The translations under genes were made by a program, and so were the position numbers. From Coriobacteriia bacterium (GTDB lineage Bacteria; Actinomycetota; Coriobacteriia; Anaerosomatales; JAAXUF01), in contig JBBRSD010000008.1 of NCBI GenBank assembly GCA_038245725.1, positions 79,946 to 143,945 of the forward strand: DNA of 64,000 bases, read 5' to 3'. The notes beneath the pieces were generated by a model. It saw nothing but the letters and a program-made list of their open reading frames with translations, was not told the origin of the DNA and did no database searches. Below, piece after piece: positions 33,398 through 50,270 of this stretch (positions within the stretch are counted from its first letter, which is position 1; the number at the start of each line of letters is the position of its first letter).

Positions 33398-36300
33398 CTA
33401 CATCTTCTCGATCTTGCAGAGACACGCTTTCGATTCGGGAATCATGGAGTTCGCGTCCCCGGCGTCGATGCACAGGTCGTTGGCGCGAGAGCCGGTCGAC
33501 AGACCCTTCTCACCCCAGTGCCACGGGATCGCGACTACGCCTGCTGCGACGCGCTGGTTACCTTGCAGTCCGCTGCCGACACGGGCACGGAAGCCGTCGC
33601 CGTACGCAGCCCTCGGGTAGTCGCCCCAAACGGTGGCGTCCGAACGCGCAGTGCGGACCCGAACCATGTCACCATCGCTGATGCCGAACGAGCGAGCATC
33701 GGCTGAGTTGAGCTCGATCCACGGCTCCGGCTCCAACTCGACGTTGGACCAGTTGTTGCGGGTGATCGGTCCACCCTGGAAGTGCTCGACGCACCGGATG
33801 GTGGTGAGCGTCAGCGGGTAGCCCGATGCGGGAACGTCCCTGCCCGCGATCTGTGTGTCGACGAAGCTCAGCTCGAAAGCCGCCCCGCCCTTCGTGTTGC
33901 GGCCCCATGCAGCTGCAAGCGCAGCCTTCGGGGTCTCGTACGGCTCGACGTGGGCCGGGAAACGACCGGCGTACGTGATGGTGCCGCCGCCGGGCTTCGG
34001 AACGAAGTGCGGGCTGCCGGCGTTGAGCGTAGCAGCAAGGACGACGTCAGGCTTGTCCACGAGCGGGTGATTGTGGCGGTACCAGCGTGAGTAGTTCAAG
34101 GTCGCTGCGTTCGCGGGCACGAAGAGGTGCGAGCATGAATCGGGCTCCATGAAGTAGTCTGTGACCTCTGCGGGGATATCGGCGTTGTTGTAGAACACGC
34201 GGCGGTTCACAAGCCACGCGTAGCCCCAGCCGTGGTAGGCGAAGGTGCCGCCATCGTTGGTGTTGTCGCGGCTCTTCGCGCGGTTCTTGACCGCCCAGCT
34301 CGCCTGCAGCGACCCCTTGTTGGCGGTAGCCCACGGTCCGCCTGTGGCGCTCGTGGCTTCCGCGTTGTACGCCCCGGTGTAGATCCAGATCGTGCCACCG
34401 GCCGCGCTCGGGGAGTTCATCTCCCGGAACACCTTCTCAGTGACCCACTCGGAACCGGTGACCGTGGCGCTCAGGTCGTACGTGACGGGATCCGTGACGT
34501 TTGCGCGAACGTGAGCCAGTTCGGCGGTGCCGCTGGCGAGGTCATACGCCGTGCCCGGGGTCCAGTCGTACGGCGTGCCGTACAGGGTGTCGTAGACGCC
34601 TCCGCTGAGTCCCAGAGCGGTCCACTTGGCCTGGATGTGCGAGAACGCACCGGCTGTCTCGAGGGCCTTTGCAAGACGGAGCAGCAGCTCCATGTCGTCC
34701 TTGCTGTTGCCCAGAGGAGCGGCAGCGCGGTAGCGCCACTGCAGCGTGCGACCGGAGTTGGTCGAGCTGCCGGCGTGCTCCACGTGCGCACTTGCGGGAA
34801 GCAGGTAGGTGACCGAGCCGTCCTTGCGATCGCACGCAGCCGTCTCGTTCTCGAACATGTCGGTGCAGACGAGAAGGTCGATGTTCTTGAGCCCCTGGCG
34901 AACCTTGCCCTGGTTCGGCTCGGTGATTGCTGGGTTCTGACCCCACACGACGGCTGCCTTCGTCACGGTGCCCGCGGCCATCGCGCGGAACATCGTCATG
35001 TGGCTGTCGCCGTTGCCCTTGGGCCACAGGTCGTAGATGCCATCGACGATCGTCTTGCGAGCCGACAGCGTCGTTGCGGCCAGCGCCTCTGCGTACCCAC
35101 CGAAGAACTTCAGCGTCATGTTGAAGAAACCACGCTGCTGCAAGCCGGTCGCACCGAGACCTGCGGCACCCGTGCTGACGTTGTACGCATCGTCGTGCGA
35201 TCCGTCCATGAGCGACCGAACGGTCCCGCTGAAGTCGGTCGTGCCGGTGGTACCGGTCAACGGGTTGCCCCACAGGCCATCCATGTAGTCGCCGAACGTG
35301 CTTCCGACGCCAGGGTTGCTCGAGTACGCGGGAATGTTGCCGTTAAGCAGCCCTAGGTCGGTCGAACCCTGAACGTTGTGGATGCCGCGCAGCGCGTTGA
35401 TGCCGCCGCCGGCGCGTCCCATGTTGCCCATGAGCGTCTGAATGACCGCGAACGACTTCACGTTCTGACTGCCGGTCGTGTGCTGCGTGATGCCCATGGC
35501 GTACAGCATCGTCAGGCACTTGTAGCCGGCGGCAGTGGGATCTTGCGAACCAGCAGCGCCGACGGCTGCCGCAACGCTCGAGCAACGGCTGTTGTCGATG
35601 AAGTATTTCACCAGGTCGAGAATCTCGGTCATGGTGCAGCCGGCGACGTCCGCCACCACGCTCAGCGTGTACGGATCCACGTGCGCCTTGAGGCGGTTGT
35701 AGACGGTGTTCACATCGGAAAGACGGCAGTCGGCTACCTTGACGGGGAAGTTCGAGATCAGCTGGTTCGCGGTCTCGCCCCCGACCGGCGTTGCACCGGT
35801 GTTGGTGACGGTGGCCCGCTGGTAGTCCGTACCCGTCGCATTCACGAGGAAGCGAGCGTCGGAGTACTTCGAGCTGCCGGCGACCGTCGCTGAGAGCGAG
35901 CTTGCGTGCGTCGCGTCACCATCGGTGTAGAAGCTTCCGTTGCCGGTCTGGTTCAGGAAGTCGTAGAACTTGGTGACGGCACCCGCGGGCGCGGTCCCGT
36001 TGGGGCTCGTGCCTTCCATCTGCGAGATGATCTCGCGGACGATACCGTTGATGAGCGCGATATCGCTACCGGGACGGATACGGATGTACTGGTCGGCCTG
36101 CAGCGCTGTACGCGTCTTGCGAGGGTCGACCACGACGAGCTTGGCACCCTTGGCACGGGCGCGGTTGATGTGAGCCATGCACGCCGGGTGGTTCTCGCTC
36201 GGGTTAGCTCCCCATACGAGAACGTTTGATGCGTTGCCGATGTCCGACCAATGGTTGGTCATCGAGCCTCGTCCGAATGCAGCCGCCAGACCGGCGACCG

Positions 36301-36958
36301 TGGACGAGTGTCAAATACGGGCCTGATGCTCGACGTTGCTCGTACCGAAGTTCGCGATCATCTTGCGATACACATAGTTCGGCTCGTTGTTCATGTGCGA
36401 TGAGCCGAAGAACGCGACGCCCTTCGACTGGTTCGTCGCAGGAAGCGCACCGCGCGCGGTGACAAGACCTGTCGCGATCTCGCTCATGGCCGTGTCGAGC
36501 GACATCTTGCCCCACGGCCCGTTACCTGTCCGCTTGTAGGCGACGCCCGTGGCGTCGTATGCGGGGTCGTAGGCGAACGCGGAATCCGCGGGATGTGTCC
36601 CGGAGAATGCGCCGAGCCTGCGCGAGTTGTTCACGAGCTGCAGCGAACCCGCGCCCTTTGCGCACAGACCGCCTGAGTTCATGGGCGACTCGAAGTCACC
36701 GTAGATGTCGACGACCTTGCCGGTGTTCGCACCGGTCAGAGCGGTCACGACCCGCTGTCCGCAACTCGCCGAGCAGTACGGACACGTGGTGTTCGTGACC
36801 CTGTAGTTGATGGCATCGCTCTCATAGGCGCTCGCCTTGGCAGCGTCGAACGCCACGTCCATTCCGCAGCCAACGACCGCGCCGGCAACCGCCGCGGTCT
36901 TGAGAAACGCGCGTCGCGTCATGCCGTCAAACGATTGCCCCTTATCTTTAGTTGCCAT
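33398..36958 (-). CDS. fdhA: Tat-exported FdnG-like formate dehydrogenase catalytic subunit, selenocysteine at codon 216 (in-frame TGA 36311..36313)
   Basis: Track ORFs 36311..36958 and 33398..36262 are in the same frame (3561 nt in total). Reading through gives [32 protein letters not shown], which is the FDH Sec-His motif. Tat signal TRRAFLK. N-terminal FeS motif CPYCSASC...LCAKG. GGINALRGIHNVQG block. Confidence 0.85.
36268..36313 (-). other. UGA(Sec) recoding site with SECIS-like hairpin
   Basis: RNA reads UGA CA CUCGUCC A CGGUCGCC GGUCU GGCGGCUG CAUUC GGACGAG. Lower stem is 7 bp, upper stem is 8 bp with G.U pairs, and the apical loop is GGUCU about 16-20 nt after the UGA. This resembles E. 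coli fdhF as I recall it. Confidence 0.7.
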
Positions 36959-37073
36959 ACCCCCGTCCCTTCTCTTGGGAGATGTGTTGGCGAAACTTGG
37001 GCTCCTACCTCATGTGAGGCTCGTTGACCGCTCCCGGTTCGCCTCCTTCCGCCATGACGGTCAGACGATTGGG

Positions 37074-37130
37074 AGCAAAAATACAAAGAACCGGCACACA
37101 CCAAGGCACAAGCCTCAGCCGTGAACCGGT
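37074..37130 (-). terminator. Intrinsic-terminator-like hairpin plus U tract in the fdh leader
   Basis: Minus-strand RNA reads ACCGGUUCACGG...GGC-UUGU-GCC...GUGUGCCGGU followed by UCUUUGUAUUUUUG. It lies between the riboswitch-like element and the fdhA start. Confidence 0.5.
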
Positions 37131-37218
37131 CCATTTTGTATGCACGTTGATCTTCCCCTACCCCGTGGAAAGCGCCACCCAGCCCAAAGGCAAACCCCCC
37201 ACAGGGGCCTTTGGTGGT

Positions 37219-37322
37219 GTGGTCTCCTTTCCAAACGGGAGGCGACCGCGTTTCCGCTGGCACCCATCGGCCCGAGAACCATAGCTGCCGCAAGGCGCCG
37301 TAGATTGAAGGGCTCGGAGATC
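37219..37322 (-). promoter_or_regulatory. Moco (molybdenum/tungsten cofactor) riboswitch-like element, copy 1
   Basis: RNA reads AUCUCCGAGCCC...GGGCCGAUGGGUGCCAGCG-GAAA-CGCGGUCGCCUCCCGUUUGGAAAGGAGAC. The conserved blocks CUCCGAG, GCCUCCC and GGAAAGGAG match the Moco motif as I remember it. Its paralogue at 50135..50240 shows compensatory changes. Confidence 0.65.
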
Positions 37323-37405
37323 ATCTGTGTCGCGCTTTCAATGTGGTTCGCCTTGAGCTACCGGGCCCGAGGCTAGCCCGCACGGAGTGCGGCCTCCACG
37401 ATTTC

Positions 37406-37434
37406 TACACTATACGCCTTGCTGACCTAGGTCA
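37406..37434 (-). promoter_or_regulatory. Sigma70-like promoter candidate for the fdh operon
   Basis: Minus strand reads TTGACC, 15 nt, TATAGT (or 17 nt to TAGTGT), directly after the NHL gene stop and about 85 nt upstream of the riboswitch-like element. Confidence 0.45.
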
Positions 37435-37443
37435 AATGTGGCA

Positions 37444-40132: not shown

Positions 40133-41341
40133 TCAGCGTCCGTGTTCGGAGCGCGTGAGCTCCTCGCCGAGAACAGCGAGCGCTTCGAGAGCCATGTCGA
40201 CATCACTCTCCGTGACGCCGAAACCGACGCTCAGGCGCAGGGCGCCACACTCGATCGTGCCGAGCACCCGATGTGCCCACGGGGCGCAGTGCAGCCCGGA
40301 GCGCACCGCGATGCCGTACCTGCGATCGAGCGCGAATGCGAGCCGGTCGGCCGGGACATGCTCGTGCACGATCGAGACGACCGGAACGCGCGGCTCGTCG
40401 GCTGCGGGTCCGAGAACCCGGAAGCCCTGGATGCCCGCCAGCCCGCCGAGCAACCGCCGCGTGAGCGCCGTCTCGCGCGCTCGCTGCGTCTCGCCGTGAT
40501 CGCGGATCCACCGCGCCGCGGCGCCCAGCCCGATCACTCCGGGCACATTCGGCGTGCCGGCCTCGTAGCGGTCCGGCCGCCCGCGCGGGCCTATGGGGTC
40601 CTCGCTCTCGCCCCCACCGGTGCCGCCCATGACGAGTTCGGCGGGCTCGCACTGGGGAGAGAGGTAGAGCACGCCCACGCCCTGCGGACCGAGCAGCCCT
40701 TTGTGCCCGGCGCACGCCCAAGCGTCCACGCCAAGCGTAGCGAGATCGACATCGAGGTGCCCTCCGGCCTGCGCGCCGTCGACGATCATGAGCGCGCCGC
40801 GATCGTGAGCGATGTCTGCGAGATCGGCCACCGGCTGGATCGCGCCGGTCACGTTGCCGGCGTGCTGGCAGACGACCGCCCGAGTGGGAGCTGCGGCGAC
40901 AAGCGCCTCGACCGAGTGCAGGTCGACGCAGCCGGCGTCGTCCGCCTCGGCGAGCACGACCTCGACGCCTCGCGACGCGAGTACGTTGAGCGGGCGGGCG
41001 ACCGCGTTGTGCTCGACGGGACCCACGACGACTCGGTCGCCCGGCGAGAGCAGTCCGAACAGCACGAGGTTGATCGCCTGGGTGCACCCCGGCTGGAACA
41101 GCAGGTTCTTCGCGTCTGCCACGCCGAGAAGTGCCGCAATATCATGCCGCGCACCGTGCATGGCGCGCGCGGTGTCGATCGCGAGCCGGTAGGCGCCGCG
41201 GCCGGGGTTGCCGCCGAGTTCCGTGAGCGCGCGCTCCATCGCCTCCACCACCTCGGGCGGCTTGGGCCACGAGGTCGCAGCGTGGTCGAGGTAGATCGTG
41301 CGCTGCGGCGCCGCGGGCGCGGTGTTCTCGGCGGGGGTCAT
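40133..41341 (-). CDS. Class-V aminotransferase-fold cysteine desulfurase / selenocysteine lyase-like protein
   Basis: IYLDHAATSWP, PLP-lysine context CAGHKGLLGPQG, and active-site RSGLHCAPWAH. Confidence 0.8.
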   Translation of the reverse strand: MTPAENTAPAAPQRTIYLDHAATSWPKPPEVVEAMERALTELGGNPGRGAYRLAIDTARAMHGARHDIAALLGVADAKNLLFQPGCTQAINLVLFGLLSPGDRVVVGPVEHNAVARPLNVLASRGVEVVLAEADDAGCVDLHSVEALVAAAPTRAVVCQHAGNVTGAIQPVADLADIAHDRGALMIVDGAQAGGHLDVDLATLGVDAWACAGHKGLLGPQGVGVLYLSPQCEPAELVMGGTGGGESEDPIGPRGRPDRYEAGTPNVPGVIGLGAAARWIRDHGETQRARETALTRRLLGGLAGIQGFRVLGPAADEPRVPVVSIVHEHVPADRLAFALDRRYGIAVRSGLHCAPWAHRVLGTIECGALRLSVGFGVTESDVDMALEALAVLGEELTRSEHGR

Positions 41342-49238: not shown

Positions 49239-50129
49239 CTACTTGGCGTTCGGAATGAAGAGCTGCTGCCCGTACTTGGCCACGCCGAACTCGCCGATGA
49301 CCTTCTGAGCTTCAGCGCTGACGATCCAGTCCGCGAAGGCCTGGCCGCCTGCTTGGTTCTTCGACTCCGGGATGACGATGACGCCGTACTGGTTGAGCAG
49401 CGCCTTCTGCTTCTCGAGGACGATCTCGAGGCCGGGAAGCTGGGCCGCCATCGACAGCCACGTTCCGCGGTCGATGAGCGTGTACGCGCTCTTCTCATCG
49501 GCGACCTTGGCGGTCTCGCCCATGCCCTGACCGGTCGAGACGTACCACGTGTCGGCTGCAGGCGTGGGTGTTGCGATGCCCGACTTCGCCCAAAGCGTCA
49601 GTTCCTTCGTGTTGGTGCCCGACTTGTCCCCGCGCGAGATGAAGGTCGCCTTGCCAGCCTTGCCCGCCTTCTGGATCGCAAGCATCGCGGCTGTGGTGTC
49701 GGCAGAACCCTTGACCCCGGCCGGATCGGCCTTCGGGCCGACGATGACGAAGTCGTTGAACATGACGTCTTGACGCGTCTTGGCGTAACCGTCGGCCAGG
49801 AACTTGAGCTCGGCGGCGGGTGAGTGGACCAGCAGGACGTCGGCGTCCTTGCTCTGGCCGAGCTTGAGGGCCTCACCGCTGCCCACTGCGATGACCTTCA
49901 CCTTGTACTGCGGGTAGGCCTTCTCGAAGGCCGGTATCAAGACGCCGAAGAGCCCGGAGTCCTGCGTCGAGGTGGTCGAGGCCAGAATGACCTCGGGGCT
50001 GACAGCCTTCTCGGCGGAGGTGGACGAAGTTGCCGGCTTCGAGCATCCCGCCATCGAGAAGAGCAGAACGGCGGCGAGCAACGAGCCCGCCAGGCGCCTC
50101 CCTTGAGGCGCAGCGATACGGTGGTGCAT
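49239..50129 (-). CDS. tupA: Tungstate-binding lipoprotein (TupA-type)
   Basis: Lipobox FSMAGCS. TTSTQDSGL anion-binding motif characteristic of TupA as I recall it. The ATG lies 3 nt after the riboswitch-embedded AAGGGGA. Confidence 0.8.
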   Translation of the reverse strand: MHHRIAAPQGRRLAGSLLAAVLLFSMAGCSKPATSSTSAEKAVSPEVILASTTSTQDSGLFGVLIPAFEKAYPQYKVKVIAVGSGEALKLGQSKDADVLLVHSPAAELKFLADGYAKTRQDVMFNDFVIVGPKADPAGVKGSADTTAAMLAIQKAGKAGKATFISRGDKSGTNTKELTLWAKSGIATPTPAADTWYVSTGQGMGETAKVADEKSAYTLIDRGTWLSMAAQLPGLEIVLEKQKALLNQYGVIVIPESKNQAGGQAFADWIVSAEAQKVIGEFGVAKYGQQLFIPNAK

Positions 50130-50134
50130 AACGG

Positions 50135-50240
50135 ATCCCCTTTCCAATACGGGAGGCGGGGTCGTTTCCGTTCCCCGCCCTATCGGTCCGGCCACCATGG
50201 ACGCCGCGCAGCGCCGGTAGGTAGATCGGACTCGGAGATG
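50135..50240 (-). promoter_or_regulatory. Moco/Wco riboswitch-like element, copy 2, with the tupA Shine-Dalgarno inside the closing helix
   Basis: RNA reads AUCUCCGAGUCCG...CCGGACCGAUAGGGCGGGGAACG-GAAA-CGACCCCGCCUCCCGUAUUGGAAAGGGGAUCC GUU AUG. It has the same conserved blocks as copy 1, with covarying stems. Confidence 0.65.
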
Positions 50241-50270
50241 TGTGGACCGCGATTCTTCGCGGCACGCCCT

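Follow-up and report, generated by a model that had tools for sequence, protein, structure and literature searches.

The leader of the formate dehydrogenase gene fdhA in a Coriobacteriia bacterium carries a riboswitch aptamer of the molybdenum or tungsten cofactor (Moco/Tuco) class, followed by a long and conserved expression platform of unusual design. The gene lies on the minus strand of a 64,000-nucleotide (nt) stretch of contig JBBRSD010000008.1, the whole of which we call the window. The leader is best explained as a functional, P3-lacking (Tuco-type) tungsten/molybdenum cofactor riboswitch that controls the fdhA operon, where we infer the identity of the ligand. The aptamer itself is ordinary and adds one more example to a riboswitch class that has been known since 2008; what is new, and what matters, is the conserved, inverter-like platform. 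Taken whole, our best explanation, a Tuco-type switch with two exclusive folds that is read by a ribosome and turns fdhA ON, is tentative, and we would put it somewhat below an even chance of being right in all its parts.

The fdhA aptamer and its conserved leader

RF01055, the Moco/Tuco riboswitch aptamer, matches the minus strand at 37208-37331 with 59.4 bits against a gathering score of 36 (cmscan, Rfam 15). The match is full-length (model positions 1-135), with E = 1e-11 for the window and 1e-13 for a 631-nt region. A scan of the whole window returned two matches to RF01055 and no other Rfam family above its gathering threshold, and the whole 2.4-Mb, 98.5%-complete genome has two copies, each preceding a cofactor-related operon. 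The Moco-type aptamer recognized in the initial annotation is thereby borne out, having escaped the refutation named there, the lack of a significant RF01055 match, and the element is almost certainly a genuine member of the class. All the sequence features named there lie on the minus strand (Table 1): besides the closing helix P1 and its flanking blocks, these are a second helix of GCCC with GGGC, which is the base of P2, a long stem with a GAAA tetraloop, which is P4, and a strong hairpin CCAAAGGC...GCCUUUGG, which is the hairpin H1 discussed below. The location was right, except that a start at 37322 omits the first 9 nt of the Rfam match, and the distance to fdhA, given as 260 nt, is close to the 250 nt that separate the aptamer 3' end from the ATG (36958).

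The conservation of this leader was followed in 40 relatives searched with RF01055, in which FdhA and TupA were placed by tblastn. A separate search of 185,579 species genomes supplied 24 further FdhA loci, some of them from genomes already sampled. Removal of duplicates left 35 distinct fdhA leaders for comparison, and two MAFFT alignments, A2 and A3, hold 19 and 27 sequences, respectively. The sampled genomes are related and are not independent samples. The core blocks CCGAG, GCCUCCC and GGAAAGG are invariant columns in both alignments. The P4 cap GGAAAC is also invariant, as are the CUA and A.GG of the receptor-like CUA...AUGG bulge in P2 in A3, and the P2 and P4 stems differ in sequence among leaders. 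Both copies lack the P3 columns in their cmscan alignments, and P3-lacking Moco RNAs were correlated with tungsten-cofactor genes by Regulski et al. in 2008 (PMC2408646). As the ligand is unstable, direct binding was undemonstrated even for the Moco RNA of Escherichia coli (PMC2408646).

The distance from aptamer to gene divides the family by gene. Among the 40 relatives, fdhA-linked aptamers end 225-283 nt 5' of the start codon in all instances (19 genomes of the order) and tupA-linked aptamers end 3-10 nt 5' of it without exception. The fdhA aptamer lies 237-286 nt upstream in 22 of the 24 further loci, giving a range of 225-286 nt over some 40 Coriobacteriia-type genomes from many genera. 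What fills this distance is constant in order. After the P1 3' strand, all 35 leaders have H1, a strand x, the motif GGGUAAGGGAG, a short spacer and a hairpin with a U tract. The order continues downstream with a C-rich block, a conserved GGAAGGAGG block and the fdhA ribosome-binding site (RBS). Platform type thus tracks gene role perfectly, in that supply genes have a Shine-Dalgarno (SD) sequence inside P1 and the enzyme gene has the inverter-like platform. Because their SD sits inside P1, the supply genes would be turned OFF by the cofactor, and the perfect correlation of platform with gene role fits an opposite logic for the enzyme gene.

The same comparison bears on the idea that the element is a stand-alone RNA, or a switch acting on RNA stability or processing only, with fdhA driven from elsewhere and little or no effect in cis. 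The terminator is autonomous and the unit from aptamer to terminator, at about 250-330 nt, would make a discrete transcript, but a scanner found no promoter-like site between the terminator and fdhA. Further, the order and distance of aptamer and fdhA are kept in about 40 genomes of many genera, and the genome has only two copies, both before cofactor-related operons. We consider this explanation very improbable.

Table 1. Features of the fdhA leader and related elements, in window coordinates (P0, helix around the aptamer; m, 3' half of the SD-like motif)
Feature	Position	Strand	Description
Promoter-like TTGACC-15 nt-TATAGT	37409..37435	-	Between the stop of the NHL-protein gene (37444) and the leader; predicted from sequence
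5' leader segment L (GAAAGCGC)	37332..37339	-	Can pair with x when P1 is formed (helix P0)
AUCUCCGAG	37321-37313	-	Feature of the initial annotation
P1 halves UCUCC / GGAGA	37320-37316 / 37227-37223	-	Closing helix of the initial annotation
Aptamer core blocks CCGAG, GCCUCCC (37243-37237), GGAAAGG (37232-37226)	within 37208-37331	-	
GCCUCCCGUUUGGAAAGGAGAC	37243-37222	-	Feature of the initial annotation
Hairpin H1 (CCACACCACCAAAGGC...GCCUUUGGGCUGGGUGG)	37171..37222	-	Directly past the P1 3' strand; dG -26.6 kcal/mol
Anti-aptamer strand x (GCGCUUUCC)	37167..37175	-	Pyrimidine-rich; pairs with GGAAAG and the P1 3' strand, lengthening H1
Motif GGGGUAGGGGAAGAUC (consensus GGGUAAGGGAG)	37149..37164	-	Pairs through its 5' Gs with CCUCCC and through its 3' half (m) with the P1 5' strand
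Candidate leader open reading frame	37005..37145	-	GUG 37145-37143, 46 codons, UAG 37007-37005; translation predicted
Hairpin T and U tract	37081-37141 and 37077-37080	-	Intrinsic-terminator-like; ends UCUUUGUAU, then UUUU(G)
Post-terminator hairpin	37030..37076	-	C-rich GCUCCC (37076-37071) and conserved GGAAGGAGG block (37050-37042); predicted fold
fdhA	33398..36958	-	1186-residue formate dehydrogenase catalytic subunit with Tat (twin-arginine translocation) signal; selenocysteine (TGA) at residue 216
Second P3-lacking RF01055 riboswitch	50121..50246	-	61.8 bits, full model; directly 5' of tupA

Two predicted, exclusive folds of the leader

Folded without constraint, most leaders pair the P1 5' strand with m, in a helix that we call P1alt, and not with the proximal GGAGA. 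In these same folds CCUCCC, GGAAAG and the P1 3' strand pair with the Gs of the motif and with x, making of H1 a long anti-aptamer hairpin. H1 is about 50 nt long and present in all leaders, with varying sequence; where the initial annotation saw in it an expression platform by itself, it emerges as the core of this larger hairpin. When P1 is forced in the window, x pairs with GAAAGCGC (37332-37339) to form P0 around the aptamer and m is left unpaired, in a fold that lies 10 kcal/mol above the ligand-free one. The structures given here are thermodynamic predictions throughout.

Support for both folds comes from co-variation, which was assessed with an alignment-free test in which the duplex energies of cognate pairs were compared with those of species-swapped pairs over 34 leaders and 2000 permutations. 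The positive controls behaved as expected, with z = -10 for H1 and z = -12 for the terminator arms. The P1 closing helix gave z = -4.4 and P1alt, the pairing of the P1 5' strand with m, gave z = -5.8, with 0 of 2000 permutations in either case reaching the cognate value, and the 3' core of the aptamer against x-GGGG gave z = -3.1; these z values overstate independence because the sampled species are related. Compensatory extensions are nonetheless clear, as in CGAUCUCC:GGAGAUCG, GACAGUCU:AGGCUGUC, GACGAUCUCC:GGGAGGUCGUC and GGAGUCUCC:GGGAGACUC. Column-wise counting of P1alt pairs on the MAFFT alignment A3 was abandoned for the permutation tests because the register of m shifts between lineages.

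The helix P0 is of narrower distribution. The duplex of L with x (RNAduplex) has -17.7 kcal/mol in the window and -21 to -24 kcal/mol in G009 and G003, and the G012 group keeps the P0 pairing with a different sequence. As a universal helix P0 was rejected: its strength is confined to some members of the family, with z = -0.5 over all leaders, and it is therefore taken to be lineage-specific.

From the modelled folds and their co-variation, a two-fold switch between P1 and P1alt is likely, one that would hide m without ligand and free it when P1 is held. The motif that contains m is SD-like, and its GGGUA.G is nearly invariant in A2 and A3. In the models, whether m (and x) is single-stranded is the sole feature of the leader that depends on the state of the switch.

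Terminator, candidate leader reading frame and probable direction of control

The hairpin T is predicted to be very stable (dG -33.4 kcal/mol, z = -6.5), and none of 200 shuffled sequences folded as stably. Every one of the 35 distinct leaders has a counterpart of it with a U-rich tract, placed 110-144 nt past GGAAAGG, and the hairpin and U tract first noticed 3' of this aptamer are thus shared by all the leaders compared. A simple terminator scanner left the window's hairpin and U tract unflagged because the stem is long and interrupted. The terminator begins 67 nt past the aptamer, and it is intact both in the ligand-free minimum free energy folds of nearly all leaders and in the P1-forced fold. 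Within the limits of such modelling, the terminator is shown to be autonomous and conserved.

The ordinary attenuation that the initial annotation implied, in which cofactor binding would decide between a terminator and an antiterminator, finds no structural basis in this leader. Twenty-odd upstream partners were set against both terminator arms in the duplex permutation test, among them the 5' leader, x, m, the P1 5' strand, the spacer, the strands and loop of H1, P2 and P4, and none co-varies with either arm. The spacer is even less complementary to the 5' arm than swapped spacers are (z = +2.6). Folding of the segment from x to the terminator 5' arm gave weak, non-conserved structures, save for a clade-specific match between the 3' strand of H1 and the terminator 5' arm, and an antiterminator of this kind was discarded.

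An OFF attenuator, in which cofactor favours termination, an alternative structure permits read-through in its absence and less formate dehydrogenase is made when cofactor is abundant, is nonetheless in keeping with the terminator-type platforms and OFF logic described for the class (PMC2408646), and the terminator is indeed strong and conserved. The compact ligand-free domain also ends 7-20 nt before the terminator and might hinder it kinetically, in a manner beyond thermodynamic models. However, no antiterminator was found among the segments just listed, and the terminator stands in both predicted folds. Repression of the sole enzyme that uses a bis(pyranopterin guanine dinucleotide) (bis-PGD) cofactor when that cofactor is present would make little physiological sense, and the neighbouring tupA makes do with a simple OFF design, its SD in P1, beside which an elaborate platform would be superfluous. 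We regard an OFF attenuator as rather unlikely, yet as a serious contender.

The terminator folds in both states, and a ribosome is therefore our candidate for the reader of the switch. We propose a model in which the ligand-free aptamer is invaded by the strand x-GGGG-m (37149-37175). The x segment and the Gs would pair with GGAAAG, the P1 3' strand and CCUCCC, lengthening H1, and the freed P1 5' strand would pair with m as P1alt, burying both m and the GUG start codon of a leader open reading frame (ORF). With ligand, P1 would hold, x would pair with the 5' leader as P0 in the lineage of the window, and m would be single-stranded. A ribosome could then bind m and begin translation at the GUG next to the terminator 5' arm, a codon that is AUG in relatives. 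By occupying or translating that arm it would block the terminator, in a coupled attenuation of the pyrBI type, and RNA polymerase would read through. Cofactor would in this way switch fdhA ON, and the sister riboswitch would hide the tupA RBS in P1 and thereby shut down both tungstate uptake and the synthesis of cofactor.

The positions of start codons argue for such a ribosome. In all family members and in many other leaders a start codon lies 3-11 nt past m and 10-15 nt before the G+C-rich core of the terminator. An AUG falls in the 13-nt window before this core in 18 of 35 leaders (23 of 35 when GUG is counted), where 0.11 would be expected, and the enrichment persists by cluster (16 of 27 sequence clusters, P about 2e-9). 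The window's GUG (37145-37143) is aligned with the AUG of its three closest relatives, G009, G003 and G002. It lies 3 nt past the m strand (37158-37149), about 8 nt past the GGGGA core and 1 nt before the terminator stem, and it is paired in the predicted ligand-free fold. The candidate ORF reads through the terminator, and a second AUG, independent of its frame, lies at 37134.

Many leader ORFs stop 10-25 nt past the GGAAGGAGG block. Five relatives differ in this respect from the window, whose GUG ORF ends before fdhA at 37007-37005: in L020/L033 (G009), L017 (G004), L024 (G010), L019 (G038) and L062 an ORF of 66-68 codons ends at the UAA of fdhA codons 3-4 (AUGGCNACUAAAG). An ORF that ends inside the gene would allow termination-reinitiation coupling to fdhA.

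Several observations weigh against a ribosome-read ON switch. The start in the window is a GUG, or else an AUG that lies inside the lower stem of the terminator. The ORF frame stays open across the U tract in 21 of 25 leaders, compared with 12 of 25 and 18 of 25 for the other frames, which is a weak signal. The stretch from m to the terminator lacks AUG, GUG and UUG alike in nine of 35 leaders (G031, G032, L063, L065-L070), and a ribosome-based reading therefore cannot be universal. A conserved leader peptide was considered and rejected, with frames and stops beyond the terminator differing even within a genus; any translation would therefore matter as an act and not for its product. No 16S 3' end turned up in the assembly, and complementarity to the SD-like motif therefore rests on the general bacterial anti-SD. 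All of the folds are thermodynamic predictions, and the experimentally characterised Moco riboswitches that we found in the literature are all OFF (PMC2408646). In favour of the proposal, precedents exist for riboswitch-controlled upstream ORFs (uORFs) in Actinobacteria (PMC11260477, PMC12810186) and for cofactor-dependent enzyme expression, as torCAD expression in E. coli needs bis-MGD, bis(molybdopterin guanine dinucleotide), with the sensor unexplained (PMC10845959).

The leaders that lack a start codon have the longest C runs past the U tract. A C-rich block stands directly past the U tract in most leaders, and it reaches C5-C7 in these; the conserved GGAAGGAGG block follows at a distance of some 35-45 nt and is not itself followed by a start codon, and in alignment A2 both the GCUCCC and the GGAAGGAGG blocks recur. 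It is thus possible to conceive of an ON switch that needs no translating ribosome, where freed m would pair with the C-rich block and either mask Rho loading or re-arrange the GGAAGGAGG hairpin to open the fdhA RBS, with the terminator as a constant partial attenuator or pause. Duplexes of m with the C-rich block at about -10 kcal/mol are possible in every species, and with m free the predicted accessibility of the fdhA SD rises by 0.14-0.33 in six of eight start-codon-less leaders. Rho is encoded in the genome, and Rho-linked riboswitch control is known in Actinobacteria (PMC12810186, bioRxiv 10.1101/2022.06.01.494293). Yet the pairing of m with the C-rich block has no cognate advantage in the duplex test (z = +1.0), SD accessibility over all 34 leaders is unchanged (0.52 versus 0.49), and a strong canonical terminator would be left without a means of being overcome. 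On the first two of these grounds the relay from m through the C-rich block and the GGAAGGAGG block to the fdhA RBS was discarded, and a ribosome-free ON switch seems to us quite improbable.

We think that activation is likelier than repression for the fdhA leader, and for the ON direction as such we see the chances as about level. The mechanism through a ribosome and the leader ORF, whose translation is itself predicted, is more tentative than either the direction or our account as a whole.

The fdhA leader shares with the known Moco/Tuco class P1, P2, P4, the GAAA tetraloop, the core blocks and a place upstream of a cofactor-using enzyme, with genes related to tungsten in the genome (RF01055; PMC2408646). 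Regulski et al. also described terminator-type and translational platforms in one organism, much as the second copy here has its SD in P1, and they mention in passing 'a long gap' after one copy in Syntrophomonas wolfei (PMC2408646). The described Moco platforms either place the SD within P1 or have a terminator a short way past the aptamer (PMC2408646). In contrast, the fdhA leader has a conserved module of about 250 nt, comprising H1, x, the SD mimic, the terminator and a further hairpin, and no antiterminator was found in it. Its logic is probably inverted (ON) relative to those platforms.

Outside the class, closer parallels can be drawn for the proposed reading by a ribosome. In attenuation of the E. 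coli pyrBI/pyrE type, translation of a leader ORF by a ribosome keeps an intrinsic terminator from folding, and for pyrBI the signal is UTP-dependent pausing of the polymerase. The fdhA leader resembles pyrBI in having a leader ORF that runs through an intrinsic terminator, where ribosome occupancy would decide read-through. It differs in that a riboswitch would gate the RBS of a leader ORF whose translation is predicted, and a canonical start is missing from a third of the homologous leaders. The add adenine riboswitch of Vibrio vulnificus is a translational ON riboswitch; as predicted here, its ligand locks an anti-SD-like strand into P1 and frees the SD. It belongs to another aptamer class, and the SD freed in the fdhA leader would act on a leader ORF and a terminator instead of the main gene. 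Among Actinobacteria, Mycobacterium tuberculosis has riboswitch uORFs in its B12-controlled ppe2/metE leaders (Kipkorir et al. 2024, PMC11260477) and an Mbox-uORF with Rho (PMC12810186). There too a riboswitch gates a short leader ORF that sets downstream expression, as we propose here, and ppe2 offers a likeness to the possible termination-reinitiation in the five relatives. Those switches are OFF and act via Rho or translational coupling, whereas here the intrinsic terminator lies inside the ORF and the predicted direction is ON.

How cells match the costly synthesis of molybdo- and tungsto-enzymes to cofactor supply is a standing question, as for torCAD (PMC10845959). If the fdhA leader is activated by cofactor, it would be a natural, sequence-defined example of such a riboswitch working in the ON direction, and would show plainly how a single ligand can yield opposite outputs when one genome couples it to two platform designs. 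The uORF-based control that is emerging in Actinobacteria would also gain an intrinsic terminator that is coupled to translation and gated by a riboswitch. It is tempting to speculate, doubtful as we hold the full claim to be, that this is the first Moco/Tuco riboswitch to activate the gene of a cofactor-dependent enzyme, through a P1 5' strand that toggles between aptamer and distal SD mimic and a leader ORF over a terminator that would otherwise act constitutively, with supply off and consumer on in one 22-kb cluster, conserved across an uncultured Coriobacteriia order.

Probable tungsten use and neighbouring features

The fdhA gene is interrupted by an in-frame TGA and translates as a single protein when that codon is read as selenocysteine, which makes the leader in which the riboswitch was initially placed that of a selenocysteine fdhA gene. 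Its product matches Pfam Molybdopterin, Molydop_binding and Fe4S4 and the NCBIfam formate dehydrogenase models, and it is the sole PF00384 protein and sole bis-PGD enzyme of the genome. The gene is followed by one for a 4Fe-4S subunit and then one for a multihaem cytochrome. Upstream, the leader region is bounded by the stop of an NHL-repeat gene (37444) and the fdhA ATG. As a rule of thumb for annotation in this clade, a split fdhA that has RF01055 about 250 nt 5' of it is to be read as one selenoprotein gene preceded by a long regulatory leader.

The second riboswitch precedes tupA (49239-50129, minus strand), whose RBS is the P1 3' strand GGAAAGGGGAUC. The same layout recurs in eight tupA-linked relatives, with the start codon 5-8 nt past this strand. 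To judge from its layout, the tupA riboswitch is a textbook translational OFF design beside the unusual design of fdhA. The operon runs tupA, tupBC, mobA-fdhD, moeA, mobB, moaA, a MOSC gene, a mog/moaB-like gene and a cysteine desulfurase gene. The last of these, a class-V aminotransferase gene (40133-41341, minus strand), scores 359 bits on the cysteine-desulfurase model (cut-off 377) and 290 bits on the selenocysteine lyase SclA. Its product could serve in cofactor sulfuration or in selenium supply for the selenocysteine enzyme.

The binding protein has TupA as its only NCBIfam match, at 196 bits and under the 400-bit equivalog cut-off, and besides this TupA-like transporter the genome yielded no candidate for an oxyanion binding protein. 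No ModA homologue was found in the 98.5%-complete assembly, and there are two AOR-family genes (C10:10259-11266 and C1:494809-496014). The genome looks like one with a tungsten-only economy of pterin cofactor. The suggestion, made at the outset, that the ligand could be the tungsten cofactor accords with the missing P3, the TupA-only match, the lack of ModA and the two AOR-family genes, from which we infer the ligand.

The promoter-like site upstream of the leader was missed by a scanner because the scanner accepts only spacers of 16-18 nt, and G003 and G002 have comparable TTGACC/TAT.GT pairs. CCGGCA(A) recurs in the H1 apical loop of many leaders from distant lineages (for example L006, L008, L007 and L063), and again in a small 5'-leader hairpin some 40-60 nt 5' of the aptamer (about 37355-37365 in the window, GGGCCCGGUAGC). 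It is complementary to UGCCGG in the terminator 3' arm, but the duplex test gave no co-variation for this pair. A CsrA reader of GGA-rich motifs was considered and set aside, as no CsrA gene was found in the genome. A match to the ribosomal-protein leader L31-Firmicutes at 37043-37088 on the minus strand (21.2 bits against 33.3, E = 0.05) spans the U tract and the post-terminator hairpin. It was the only candidate for a second known RNA family in the spacer and, being sub-threshold, was taken as chance. Among G002, G003, G007 and G009, some carry four RF01055 copies, two or three of them within 1-4 kb. These clustered copies are probably tandem or serial riboswitches of the tup/moa region, as described for S. 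wolfei.

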